Shown here one piece after another: positions 31,025 through 64,000 of a DNA stretch of 64,000 bases (the first letter of the stretch is position 1; the number at the start of each line of letters is the position of its first letter). A program made the position numbers and the translations under genes. The stretch covers positions 309,070,001 through 309,134,000 of the forward strand of contig OZ024740.1 of the NCBI GenBank assembly GCA_964016885.1, given 5' to 3'. This DNA comes from Eledone cirrhosa (Eukaryota). The notes under the pieces were generated by a model that made no database searches, had not been told where the DNA came from, and saw nothing but the letters and a program-made list of their open reading frames with translations.

Positions 31025-33533
31025 TTCTTCTGGTTTTATAATTTCACAAAGTTTTACCAATAGAGAGAGAGTCGGTTTCTAACATAGACACAAGACTCTC
31101 TCATTGGAATTTACACATCAACTAGGTAGATTATGTCTGCATGCATGTGTAGATATGGATGTTATTGTATGTGTGGATGTGGATGTTTTGAGTTGTATGT
31201 GTGCATGTGTATATGCTTTGCATCTGTACATGTGTATATGCAGTTATTAGATGCAACATTTTTGGAATGTTTTACATATTTTTTCTGTTCCATTAATGGA
31301 TTGTACTTGTAATTTCCTAACTAGTTGTGTTCTTTCTGTTCCTGTGAAGCCTAGCTTCTCAAGATTTGTATTGAGGCAGTTACTAACATACCCCAGTGCC
31401 GCAATAATTGCAGGCATAAATCTGAAGGTGTAATCAGGGTGGAGTATCTGCAGATTTCTCATCAGTTCTGCATAAATATTCTCCTTTTTGCTAATCTTTG
31501 ATATTATATTGGCATCTGCTGGGCAGCTAATTTCCACTACTGTGCATGCTTTATTCTCGCTGTCCCATATCATAATATCTGGTCTGTTATGCCTGCATTT
31601 TATTGGGGTTTTTACTGAAACATTCCACCAGTACTCTTTCATATTATGTACGTGGATGTCTTCCACATTGTTGTAGCTTTTAATGTTTACTATCGGGGCT
31701 ATCTTTTTTACAAACTGCATTGCACAGTGTTTTGGCCACTACATCATGCCTCATAGGTAGATAGTAGTGCGACGACATCTTTGGACAGCTGCTGATGACA
31801 TGGGTGATACCCTCGATGTTAGTTCTACAGCGTCTGCACTTGTTATCACATCTAGGTGTTTTGCCTGCATCCCTATCTCTTTTGTGAATCAGGTATTTCA
31901 TGTTAATCTCCTGTTCTTGGATTGCAAAAGCGTATCCTTCAAAATGGGAGCCAATATAGCGGTTGTTGGTCCAAGATAGACTACTTTCCTTATCTATATT
32001 ACTCTCACTCTGGAGCTTCCTGGCAACATATCCATGCATGATTTTTTGCTTATAACCATGCAGTTTTTCATCCATGGATTCACTGCAATACTGCTGAGCA
32101 ACTTCCCTTGGTGTGAGTTTTTTATTATCACACAGGGAATATCTCTTGAGGAGTTCCTTCCCAACTCTCATGATCTTATCTGTTTCATGCAGATAGACTT
32201 GCTCGAGAGACGGGCTCCTACGTTTCGAGGTTCGTAGATGTTGTCGGAGGGATATGATGCGATATTCAAATGCTGTCTCGACTGATGTTAGGCCTCTGCC
32301 TCCCTGCTTACGTTTCAAGTAAAGGCGGTCTATGTCACTGTTGATGTGGAAGTTTCTGGTGTTGTTTAGTATTTTTTGAGTTCTAACATCAACTGCTCAG
32401 ATTTTGTCTATCGTCCAATTGAGTATTCCAAACATTGGTATTAGGACAGGCACAGCAACCACATTGTGAGCCACTGTTTTGTTTTGCGCAGAGAGTTCCG
32501 ATGACCAAATCTTTCTTAATCGGGTGTAGTATTCCCTGGTTACGCGTTCCTTATTACAGATACCATTATAGGGTATATTCTCATCTATCCCCAGGTATCT
32601 CTGGCAGTCCTCATCAGATATCGGTGAAACAGTTAGGCCATTGATGACAATGTTGCTAGATTAGCTTGTTGTTTTTCCCCGCTTTACAGTCATGCATGAG
32701 CATTTATCTTGGCTAAACTCCATTCCTATATCCTTTGAGAACGTTGTAACCAGGTCAAGATTTTTCTTCATCCCATCCATGTTCTTGGCATAGTTTCAGA
32801 TCGTCCACAAATAAATTATGGGTTAGGTTCGTATTTCTGTCCTCCTGTGAGCCAATGATGTATCCCTCACATCTCTTGAGCAGAAAAGACAAGAGGTTTA
32901 ATGACAAGATAAATAATATCACAGAGAGACTGTCCCCTTGAAATATACCCCTGCAATATTTTATTTTATCAGTGAAAATAGAGTCCTCCCTCTCTGTCTT
33001 TAACCTTAGGATAGTAGCCCAAGAAGAAGACAGCCTCTCTATGGCTCTGACAATAATGTCTGGGACTTTAGCAAGTTGGAGGGTCTCTATCATTCAAGAC
33101 TGGGGAACATAATCGAAAGCTTTCCTGTAGTACAGCCAGACTGTAGCCATATTCCTCTTAAGTTGTCGCACCTCCGACATCGCAGTTTTGTTGATTAGGA
33201 GTTGTTCAGCACATCCCCAAACCCCTTTTTTTTTCCAGCTGCTTGTTCAACTGTGATGATGTTATTATTTTCACAGTGATCTTGGTTGGAATAGGTTCAA
33301 GCAGGCTGTATACATCTTATACATCAGGTTCTGGCATGCAATGGGTCGGTAGTTTTTTGCCAAGTGGGTGTCTTTGTTCTTGGGGATCAGTAATGTCTGT
33401 GCTAATGTCAACCATTCTGGTATAAGTGTATCTCCCTTAAGAACTTGTTGGTAGAGATCAGTAAGATACCTCCGATAGAATATCAGTTTTTTGTACCAGT
33501 AGCCGACAATCATGTCTCTTCCTGGTGTTTTCT
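31025..33533 (-). mobile_element. 5'-truncated R4/Dong-clade non-LTR retrotransposon (RT + CCHC + restriction-like endonuclease), frameshifted
   Basis: KTPGRDMIVG, NYRPIAC, RGIFQGDSLS, HNLFVDDLKL, GGRGLTS, CRRC..HVISSC..RHD and NRPDIMIWD..VEISCP across ORFs 33271-33513, 32755-33093, 31680-32318 and 31247-31720; (TATG)n on both flanks. Confidence 0.93.
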
Positions 33534-33580
33534 TATGTATGTATGTATGTATGTGTGTATGTATGTATGTATGTATGTAC

Positions 33581-33790
33581 GTACCCTTAGCCTTTCTCAG
33601 GGCATTCTTCTAGGAGAAGGCAACTCGGGAAACTGGGATAACTCCGATATAAAATCTGCGGCTCAGTAGTTACCGATGATGTTGATCTTTTCTTCTTATC
33701 GGGTTATAGCTAGTCGCTCAGAGAGTGGGATTGGCTCAGTGCATATTCTTTCCTCACTTTAAAAAATATCTTCACGCAGAGGCATTGCAC
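33581..33790 (+). mobile_element. probable RTE-type 5' UTR fragment
   Basis: gggcattcttctaggagaaggcaactc resembles the CTAGGAGAAGGAAAACTC motif I recall from RTE 5' ends; a similar motif is on the - strand at about 5555-5590. Confidence 0.4.
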
Positions 33791-42013: not shown

Positions 42014-43156
42014 TGATCATCATAATTTTTATGATGTTTTTTCCTTGATAGTATGGGTTGGATGGGACTTATTGAGGCATTGTCTTAAGATCGAATGCTC
42101 ATCCAGACACTAACCCTCTTAATCACTTCTTATGACATGCAGTTATACAATGTACCTATTCTAAACTAAATACAAACGTATAAGTAAAAAACGAATGAGT
42201 TAACTATGACCCCTGCAAACCCCATTTTAAGAAAAACAAAAAACATTTTTTATTAACTAATTATTTTTTGTTGTGTACTGTAAATTTGCATCTATATATA
42301 ATAACCATTAGGTAACCTTCAACTCTTTATTATATTTTATACCCCCCCCCCCCCCCACCCTCACCATACATAGTTATATCACTGAAAGATATACACTGCC
42401 AATGATACAACACAAACTGCTGACCACTTAACTAGTTGTTGATTCAAACATTTGTACTTTCTACATTATCTGAATCCTTATCTAAGTCACAAGAGGTTAG
42501 TTTCAATGGCAAACCTGAATTCCTATTATTGGCAGGCTGAATACTAGAAGAACTGGAATGGTAAATATGTTATATGATTATAGACTAATTGTTGCTGATG
42601 CAGACTATATCCAGTTTCCTTGGATACTGGATGTTACTCTGTTATATCTATGGCTGATAAGAACAGCTTGTTTCTTCTTTTTTTGGTTTTATTTGTTTCT
42701 TTTTTTGTTCTTTGTTTTGTTCTCTGTGGATTGTTGTCAATCATATTTTTTTAAATATATATATTTTGTGTTGGTTGTCATCGAGATCTTCAATATCTTC
42801 GGCCCCTGGACTGCCATTTTCCCCTACAAAATCGGTAGGAGTGCACCTCACTTGAGAAAGGATCCATGTGAGGAGTAATGGCTGATACAGTGGGTGTTGC
42901 TGGCTGTTTTCTGTGGCAATGCTTTTGCTTTCTTGTCTGCAGAGTTCAGCTGAGATGTTTCCTGGATTATATTATTTAATGTATCCATTTTTATAACATT
43001 TGGATGTGATTTGAAGGTAATTTGGTTGCTATTTCCAGCTCAGTCTTTCCAAAAGTTTATATATGTATAATACTGTGATATTTTTAGCTATATGTTAACA
43101 TTTGTTGGATGCCTAATTTTTGTCATGTTATTTGGTAAAATATAATTTTAATTTAA

Positions 43157-43234
43157 ATTTTGTTTTTGTTTTTCAGGTAAGTGTTTCTGAAGAAACTATC
43201 TGAAATTTAAAATTTCAAGCCGTTAACTGTAAGT
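43157..43234 (+). promoter_or_regulatory. candidate recursive splice site (AG|GT ratchet point) with 52-nt cryptic RS-exon
   Basis: ttttgtttttgtttttcag|gtaagt with the junction at 43176/43177, and a second gtaagt at 43229-43234; not inside any repeat I recognise. Confidence 0.68.
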
Positions 43235-43376
43235 AGAAGAAAGAAGAATGTTGTATGTTATAGAGAATGTGTAAAGCTTTTGATATAAAAAAAATAATTA
43301 TAATAATAAAATCATTGTGTACAGTGCTCAGGTGCACCACAACTCATCAAAGGTGCATGTATAGTACATAGAATAA

Positions 43377-60900: not shown

Positions 60901-61309
60901 TCTGTCTGTCTCTGACTCTTTCTCTATGTCTAACTGCCTAGCTATCTATCTGTTTCCCCAAGTATTTATCTTTGGACCAGAAAAACAATAACAACTACAA
61001 ATCATGAATTCTAATAGCAATACAAAGACAATAGCAATAATAGCAATACAGACAGATACATAGATAGAACAAAGTCATCATAAATTACTGGATATATGAT
61101 GGATAATGAGTAAAGAAAACAGAAAATTATTGTAATTGACTTAAATCAATGTAAAAGGAAATTTGGTGATGTCCAGAGTGATAAGAGAGATAAGGTTAAG
61201 GAAAATAAGGATTCAAACATCTTTCATAGATTGTTATTAGGAATAAATTATTAAATTATTATTATATTTTTGCTTTAAACTCTGTTATTCCTGGGTACTA
61301 TGCTAGTAT

Positions 61310-62090
61310 ATCATCATCATCATTTTACGTCTGCTTTTCCCTGCTTGCAAGGAAGGTATGGGTCCTATTCAGCACAGCATCCCTCCACTTGTCACGGTCC
61401 TTCATTATCTCCTCCGTGAGCTTCAGTGATCTGAGGTCCACTCTCACCACCTCCGCCCATGTTTTTCATGGTCTTCCTCTACTGCGTCTTCCTTTTACTG
61501 GGATTTCTTGGCACTTCTTCACCCAGCTGTCATCCTCCATGCGCATCACATGTCCATACAATCGCAGTCTTCTCTCCTGCACACTACAACTTATCCCTCT
61601 TATACACAGTTTCTCTCTCAACTCATCTATGCTTGGTCGTTCACGTACATTGACATTATACATCCAATGGAGCATGCTTGCTTCATTTCTCTCCAACCGT
61701 CGCATATCCTCTGCAGTTGCTGCCCATATCTCACTACCATTCAGTATCGCGCATCTCACACAGGCATCATATAACTGTACTTTTGTACGCAGGAGGAAAC
61801 CCTTCTTTGTCAACAGAGGGAGCAGCTTCCTAAACTTCTTCCAACCTGTCCTTATTCTAGATACTATGGCCTCAGAACAACCCCCTCCCATGCTAATCTG
61901 ATCACCTAGATACCGGAAGCTATCAACCACTTCTATAGAACCTACCTGCATTTGAAAAATGTGTCTATCACTGCGACTTCTACTGTCAAATTTCCCTGTA
62001 CATCTACTGCATACATAGTTTTCCCTACCTGTTAGTTTGCCTGCTATCCCACTACATCTTGTGTGTACCCAAGATCTGCATTCTGTACAT
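61310..62090 (-). mobile_element. RTE LINE 3' part (relatively young)
   Basis: ORF 61466-61951 IEVVDSFRYLGDQI..RIRTGWKKFRKLLPLL..RRLRLYGHVMRM..GRRSRGRP; (GAT)n tail at 61310-61323. Confidence 0.92.
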
Positions 62091-62109
62091 TTTATATATA
62101 TGTATATGT

Positions 62110-63610
62110 ATCATCATTTTTATGCCCACTTTTCAATGCTTGCGTGGGTTGGATGGGTCCTTCTTAGCATGGCATCTCTCCACTTGTGTTTCTTTGTCAT
62201 CCCCTCTGTGAGTCTCAGTAATTTGCAGTCACCTCCCACCACCTCTGCTCAGCTCTTTCTCAGTATACCTCTACTGTGGATTCCATCCAATTCTTCACCC
62301 ATCAATCATCATTCATGCGTATCACATGTTTGTACCAATATAGTCTTCTCTCCTGCACACCACCTCAGAGTCCTCTTAAACCCAGTCTTAGTTCATTCAA
62401 GCTCTGCCTTTCTCTCATGCTTACATTGCACATCCAACGAAGCATGGCTGCTTCATTCCTCTTCAGTATATGTTTGTCTTCTGCAGTCACTGCCCATCTT
62501 TCACTACCATGCAGCATTGCACTTTGCACACTGGCATCATACAGTCATCCTTTTGAATGTAGAGAGAAACCTTTTGTTGTCAACAGTGGGAGTACCTCTC
62601 TAAACTTCTTCCATCCTATCCTTATTCTAGCTATTATACTCTAGTGAGGTCACCTAGATAGTAGAAGCTATCGACCATATCTATGGATCCTTCTTGTGAC
62701 TGGAAAAAGTTTGTATCATAGCAGTCTTCCTCTCAATTTCTCCTGTGCATCTTCAAGCAATGTTCTCCCTTCCTATTAGTCTACTTGTTATCCCACTACA
62801 TCTTTTGTGTACTCAAGATTTATATTTTGTAAATTGTATGGAGTTTATGCCTACTCCTTTTCTGCATATTGAGCAGAGCCACTTCCCTGAGGAAGCACTA
62901 GCACTTTACTCACTAGCACTTTAGTTTGGGCTGAGTTTACTTTCAGGCCTTTTGATTACAATTCAGTTTCCATCATCGGAAGTTATTTTCTAGCGCTTTT
63001 TTGTTTTAGCTATAAGGACCAAGTCAACTGCATAGAGAAGCTCCCATGTGCATCCTCTTTTAAACTCCTCTGTTATGGCTTGAAGAACTATGATGAACTG
63101 AACCTTGATGAACTCCTACTTGTACCTTGAATTCCTCACTAAACTCATTTCCTACTCTCACTTTACTGACAGCTCCTCTGTACATAGCGTTCACTGCTCT
63201 CACAAGCCATTCTTCTACACTTAATTTCCTTAAGGACCATTAGATAATATATTGGGGTACTCTGTCAAAGGTCTTCTCTAGATCAACAAAAGCTAAATAT
63301 AGTAGTTAATTTTTGGCTTGGAACTTCTCCTGTAGTTGCCTAAGAAGAGTGTATCTGGGTACTTTTCCCAGGCATGAAACCAAACTGCATCTCATCTATT
63401 TTGACTCTTACCTTAATTAGCTGCACTATAACTCTTTCAGTCACTTTCATAACTTGGTCCATTAGTTTTATTCCTCTATAGTTGATCCTTTCTAGAGCAT
63501 CATCTTTGCCCTTGCAGCGATTTATGATTGTACTGCTGTGCCAGTCATTGGATATGACTCCGTCATCTATTACTTGATTTACGATACGGGTTACTATTTT
63601 GCATTGTGAA
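62110..63610 (-). mobile_element. second, older RTE LINE (RT region to 3' end)
   Basis: NYRGIKLMDQVMKV..QFGFMPGKST, LAFVDLEKTFDRVP, VGVHQGS and ELLYAVDLVL motifs with stops and frameshifts. Confidence 0.9.
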
Positions 63611-64000
63611 AGAAAAGACAAAGAGCGTGGTTTGGCATTCTATAACGCCTGATGTAATGACTCTCCTCATCTCTACAAGGCTCGGAAAATGATATACCAG
63701 TACTGAGTATATTCATATATTGAAGATGGGGAAATTATTTAATTCCAAGCATTCATTCAAGGAATGGAAACAAATTTCGGCATCTTGTGTGTAACTCGGA
63801 AAGTCCTCAGATGATCAGCCAGTGATGTAATGCCTACTAGATAATTATTAATTATTAATTACAGTGATGATAATGATCAAGATGATAAAATTGTGGGGGG
63901 AGGGGGGGGGGAGGGGGGGTAAAGATGCAAGTATATATTTGAAGGTAAAATTGAAGAAATAAAAAATAAAATAAAGTTAAATTTAAATTAAAATAAAATT

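Follow-up and report, generated by a model that had tools for sequence, protein, structure and literature searches.

The window analysed here, a stretch of 64,000 nucleotides of the octopus Eledone cirrhosa (C1:309070001-309134000), lies wholly (positions 1 to 64000, + strand) within the first intron of a beta-arrestin gene, as was determined by mapping exons on both sides. In the 664 kb around it a series of + strand exons encoding beta-arrestin was found, whose exon-sized matches are 94-100% identical to the Octopus protein P0122, with lower values where a match runs into intron. Exon 1 (MATVDTADDSQKRQGT) is identical to P0122, and 80,135 nt separate the end of its coding part from the window; exon 2, of 31 nt, starts at extended coordinate 180314, and intron 1 has a length of 260,448 nt, counting a gap of 200 N. 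The first-pass annotation had placed the window inside a very long + strand intron, which this mapping bears out; an intergenic locus and a host gene on the - strand, named there as the cases against it, are both excluded. From 20 kb ahead of the window as far as the gene's end, the DNA outside repeats has a T-rich + strand in each 20-kb bin.

Several other features of the region were recorded. The first 60 kb of the intron (L011-L016, 80 to 20 kb before the window) consist mostly of AT-rich microsatellite arrays, together with retrotransposon-like copies of 2-3 kb that are 82-98% alike and the 200-N gap, and the window itself holds broken reading frames of non-LTR retrotransposons at 31247-33609 (-) and 61230-63640 (-). 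About 18 kb before the window there is a CpG-rich patch (L017:1650-2500), repeated in none of the loci fetched, which has two donor-like ends and carries a GCCATCTT motif that we take to be YY1-like; by inspection, none of its short frames reads on into exon 2 in phase. This patch was rejected as exon 1, since the true exon 1 lies 80 kb before the window, and is possibly an internal promoter or an alternative first exon. Alternative N-termini before exon 2 (MW, MAMW, MGRKAFW and longer ones) occur in the cephalopod records P0123, P0124, P0126, P0127 and P0128; no exons for them were located in intron 1. Coding exons 250 to 165 kb before the window (L051-L062), which presumably represent the end of an SH3-domain gene (+), SEL1L (-) and UBR7 (+), were used solely to supply true splice sites.

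On the sense strand of intron 1, 123 kb into it and near its midpoint, a T-rich tract of 16 nt (43158-43173; 14 T and 2 G) is followed by CAG (43174-43176), and both together (43158-43176, +) would form the acceptor, or 3' splice site half, of a ratchet point. The putative ratchet-point donor GTAAGT (43177-43182, +) is fused directly to it. A further GTAAGT at 43229-43234 (+) delimits a candidate cryptic RS-exon of 52 nt (43177-43228, +), which is frame-shifting, contains stop codons in all three frames and is single-copy in the searches run; the open, frame-preserving sequence of a coding cassette exon or microexon is thus not what was found. The tract, the CAG, both GTAAGT motifs and a branch-like CTAAT at 43113 had all been described in the first-pass annotation and lie to the base where it put them, and the segment is, as it said, not a multiple of three. 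A better candidate for the branch point than this CTAAT is TTAAT at 43148-43152 (+), with its A at 43151 (-26), which is enclosed by an AG-free zone of nearly 90 nt.

Donors were scored with a matrix built from 24 local donors of neighbouring genes. Within 400 nt of 43177 the best-scoring donor is the one at +52 (43229), ACT/GTAAGT, which has a perfect intronic half and a poor exonic half and reaches a score of 3.6. The native donor of exon 1 scores 4.4. As exon 1 ends in CAG, its junction with 43177 would read CAG/GTAAGT, and the donor regenerated in this way would score 8.9, the maximum of the matrix. Keeping the 52-nt exon in the mRNA would lead to a stop at codon 18, and in the database beta-arrestins of Octopus, Argonauta, Sepia and Idiosepius exon 1 is joined directly to exon 2; for both reasons constitutive inclusion of 43177-43228 as an ordinary exon, against which the first-pass annotation had cautioned, is unlikely.

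How far such an arrangement could arise by chance depends on the motif considered. The 9-mer YAGGTAAGT occurs once in the 64-kb window, where 1.2 occurrences are expected, and alone is within chance; it is the sole such juxtaposition of AG and GTAAGT there, as had been noted before. For the 12-mer the expectation falls to 0.01 per window, with a match in 1 of 100 shuffled sequences, in agreement with the earlier estimate of 0.01-0.02. A single 12-mer picked out of a 3-Gb scan is not significant alone, and therefore independent evidence was sought. Repeats, screened by k-mer masking, approach the module from both sides: degenerate ones lie upstream, at about 42780-43050, and downstream a high-copy short repeat begins at about 43285. 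In searches of the genome with the flanks, none of the best 40 of 609 and of the best 40 of 55 scored candidates reaches the module, which fits the earlier view of a site outside recognised repeats. In three runs of one sample, possibly the assembly's own source, one contig per run spans 42400-43329 with one differing letter, and since contigs from all three runs cover the region the site is not an assembly error.

A second site of this kind was found in the same intron at extended coordinate 75465 (C1:309145465; L020:1465), 11.5 kb past the end of the window and 32 kb downstream of 43177, where a very long T tract composed of short tandem units ends in GCAG/GTAAGT. These two are the only strong + strand sites outside repeats in the 664 kb, they show no homology to each other beyond the motif, and they would split intron 1 into pieces of about 123, 32 and 105 kb. 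The acceptor half of the pattern matches the sense strand of intron 1 three times, and in two of these cases GTAAGT follows, where 0.0004-0.002 full matches of acceptor and GTAAGT are expected. The best donor behind the second site lies at +263, with no good one nearer, and for this reason it fits a model with a short RS-exon less well. A relaxed scan of the intron gave one extra match on the + strand and three on the - strand; the best antisense match, 518 nt ahead of the window, belongs to a high-copy repeat and was not retained.

The genome-wide enrichment scan proposed in the first-pass annotation gave a result that depended on the pattern. Across the genome T7YAGGTAAGT was no commoner than its reversed control (28 vs 29), and TTTYYYYTYYNCAGGTAAGT, a pattern with an 11-base tract, was only slightly commoner than its own (17 vs 11). 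Reversed controls were later exchanged for the same acceptor followed by non-donor hexamers, and a pattern was used that had been written to admit both local sites (43177 and C1:309145465). With GTAAGT it gave 56 matches in the genome, of which 42 were left after removal of one transposon family (14 matches, six shown to be homologous and eight assigned by an identical 19-mer). With four non-donor hexamers the same acceptor gave 40 matches combined, about 10 per hexamer. As GTAAGT has the lowest background count of the five hexamers (338 vs 370-582), about seven GTAAGT matches would be expected from these controls. The motif is thus in excess, as is the motif with a short downstream donor (see below), in a count that pools all intron lengths.

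At least three repeat families carry look-alikes of the fused acceptor and GTAAGT (L085, L087, L090, L109-L111 and L018:9380-9526), in two of them with a donor 32-51 nt later, and one family presumably represents LINE coding sequence in antisense. Such repeats inflate naive motif counts; they could also seed new ratchet sites.

The sequences behind the genome-wide sites were examined next. From the 56 sites 40 were fetched and from the 40 controls 20, hand-chosen with evident duplicates skipped; six transposon copies and one duplicate control were dropped from the donor test, and both local sites were kept out. A donor, defined by a consensus-match score of at least 5.5, was present at +20 to +110 in 22 of 34 non-transposon sites, compared with one of 19 controls and one of 24 ordinary donors (Fisher p = 1.7e-5 vs controls and 1.5e-6 vs true donors), with both interval and threshold set after the sequences had been seen. 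Over 15 settings of interval and threshold p ranged from 1.7e-5 to 0.072 against controls and was at most 0.005 against true donors. When 84 further intervals of that length were examined at these loci, donors were found in a mean of 4.4 and a maximum of 11 of the 34 sites. One upstream bin with donors in 7 of 34 was set aside, since its motifs are borderline and its count sits at the upper edge of the background. Among the 12 modules with strong donors the median length of the RS-exon is 58 nt, and in only 5 of 23 modules is the mini-exon open with a length divisible by three. Ordinary short exons cannot account for the excess of donors, because the control hexamers would then be followed by donors just as often, and ordinary exon ends cannot account for it either. 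Two further comparisons point in the same direction without being significant: a branch motif is present in 22 of 36 sites and in 7 of 19 controls (p = 0.08), and the strand skew is 26 of 34 against 10 of 19 (p = 0.06).

A reciprocal search, in which a short tract and GTAAGT had to be followed by an AG/GTAA donor 32-62 nt on, returned 99 rows, divided by hand count into 35 of one repeat family, 28 of tandem arrays and 36 dispersed matches; the four control hexamers together yielded 21, about five each, vs the 36 dispersed ones with GTAAGT. At positions -23 to -9, which the pattern leaves unfixed, pyrimidines amount to 12.0 of 15 in 10 dispersed sites (every third of the dispersed matches new to the reciprocal search) vs 8.0 of 15 in 11 controls (p = 3.5e-4). 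Six pairs among the 36 lie within 250 kb of each other, all on the same strand, where 0.1 would be expected. Two pairs are duplicates, C3:79024081/79076222 (-), 52 kb apart, and C2:281590668/281679049 (-), 88 kb apart, with clear similarity restricted to the 130-155 bp surrounding the module (identity of 75% in the C2 and 89% in the C3 pair). As each of these pairs duplicates one module, their clustering was discounted as independent support. The 200-kb stretches around the two pairs are mostly T-rich on the - strand, and neither a coding exon nor a host gene was recognised within either.

On C21 three unrelated ratchet-like modules (C21:21750096, 21919691 and 21960711, all -; L185, L207 and L105) lie 55, 225 and 266 kb upstream of an exon on the same strand (C21:21694590) that matches the start of an RRM of the mec-8/RBPMS/couch-potato type. 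The first exon of this RBPMS-type gene was not found by a motif pattern or by a local scan, which covered the region apart from about 190 kb between the sites. From their order and strand the modules would be intronic, and they likely mark a second giant intron that is spliced recursively.

Considering the signals at 43177 and their spacing, their place on the + strand of the host intron, the second site and the genome-wide excess of the layout, 43177 is best read as a recursive-splicing ratchet point of beta-arrestin intron 1, to which we assign a probability of roughly 78%. By analogy with the Drosophila model, from which exon definition, piecewise removal and RS-exon skipping are all inferred, the spliceosome would begin by defining the hidden 52-nt exon through its acceptor and the donor at 43229, and exon 1 would then be spliced to 43177. 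The regenerated CAG/GTAAGT would be used as the next donor, so that the mini-exon would be dropped; its predicted skipping follows from the scores, since a regenerated donor of 8.9 should outcompete an RS-exon donor of 3.6. Intron 1 would in this manner be taken out in the three pieces of about 123, 32 and 105 kb. An acceptor fused to GTAAGT with a mini-exon behind it thus likely lets the octopus remove giant introns stepwise, as flies do.

Other explanations of the site have to be weighed against this. The 52-nt segment might be a regulated poison exon, for which the first step would be identical and donor 43229 would be chosen in some tissues, the exon being kept and NMD lowering beta-arrestin. 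The perfect GTAAGT of the second donor and the stop at codon 18 upon inclusion would suit such a switch, and RS-exons that are expressed are known from both flies and mammals (PMC8605326); however, the exonic half ACT is poor, the score of 3.6 stands against 8.9, and stronger ratchet donors are reported to suppress inclusion in flies (PMC8605326), and we regard this as unlikely. That the motif is a product of chance or of a decayed repeat, without a role in splicing, draws on the approximately seven of 42 non-transposon genome matches expected by chance, on the look-alikes borne by several repeat families, one of them antisense in beta-arrestin intron 1, and on the degenerate repeats that flank 43177. 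The module is nevertheless single-copy and sits on the sense strand within 260 kb of intron; a donor follows at +52, a branch-like motif precedes it at -26, and the intron contains a second site, which makes an origin of this kind quite unlikely.

CAG/GTAAGT is also the consensus of an ordinary donor, and 43177 could end a T-rich non-coding exon, either an alternative first exon or part of a nested RNA, the donor 52 nt on being a spare one. Cephalopod beta-arrestins do have alternative N-termini spliced to exon 2, and a candidate exon of 74 nt at 42943-43016 lies upstream, but the latter overlaps degenerate repeats and was dropped, and no CpG-rich patch outside repeats was flagged beside 43177. 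Moreover, a second donor rarely follows true donors (1 of 24), and what precedes 43177 does not look like an exon, being a pyrimidine tract free of AG with a branch-like motif, so that an ordinary donor is very improbable here.

If 43177 is indeed a ratchet point, loss of its donor would be expected to introduce a stop at codon 18 of beta-arrestin, a central regulator of GPCRs. A wider proposal, namely that cephalopods possess a genome-wide system of recursive splicing of the fly type with exon-defined ratchet points, of which narrow patterns caught dozens and which plausibly number hundreds, and that new modules are seeded by local duplication of a cassette of 130-155 bp comprising acceptor, RS-exon and donor as introns swell with repeats, is put forward tentatively and at somewhat below even odds. 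If true, a cephalopod-wide system would extend the mechanism to the third great branch of bilaterians, and a fly-like signature in a mollusc genome of 3 Gb would argue for exon-defined ratchet points as an old bilaterian device, in place of the view of an insect speciality. The genome-wide sites constitute a ready list that is testable with public total-RNA data of octopus.

Recursive splicing as such is already known in flies and vertebrates. In flies over 500 ratchet points with cryptic exons are reported and in mammals few (PMC8605326), and only nine fully suppressed recursive sites are noted definitively for the latter (PMC8605326). No report on molluscs or cephalopods was found in the literature searched, which comprised few subscription papers, and one may exist; among the 13 species named in a survey of RP-sites there is no mollusc (PMC2773006). 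Whether large, repeat-rich genomes rely on recursive splicing, which is established in flies and sparse in vertebrates, is a question on which the octopus result bears, and a lungfish study concluded that recursive splicing was not expanded in that large genome (10.1101/2024.12.11.627982).

The layout is that of Drosophila ratchet points with cryptic RS-exons. Sites in Ubx, kuz and Bx share with 43177 the fused acceptor and donor, an out-of-frame cryptic exon of about 50 nt and a weaker donor of that exon (PMC8605326), and in the model developed there the cryptic exon is defined by the acceptor and the downstream donor, the upstream exon is spliced on and the regenerated donor wins (PMC8605326). 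Fly sites are moreover overrepresented in first introns and close to the middle of introns (PMC6110457), and both fly ratchet points and 43177 belong to very long introns, often first ones (PMC6110457). The segments are, however, longer in the octopus (32-123 kb vs about 9-15 kb in flies; PMC6110457), the host is a mollusc, two pairs of modules are local duplicates, and usage and conservation have been shown for fly ratchet points, whereas the octopus site is a candidate drawn from sequence. With the RS-exon sites of vertebrates the octopus would share an exon that is defined first and then skipped by competition between donors, and it shares giant introns in a repeat-rich genome of 3 Gb (Sibley et al. 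2015, via PMC8605326). Sea urchin, fly, mosquito, bee and beetle are reported to carry an excess of the RP-site motif in their long introns (PMC2773006). Vertebrates show none (PMC2773006, Table 2), and from them the octopus genome differs by its several-fold excess. That survey, as far as its account of RP-sites goes, did not extend to downstream RS-exon donors (PMC2773006), which were included here. With two sites in 260 kb, or 0.77 per 100 kb, the density in beta-arrestin intron 1 falls within the range of 0.48-2.2 given for invertebrates (PMC2773006).
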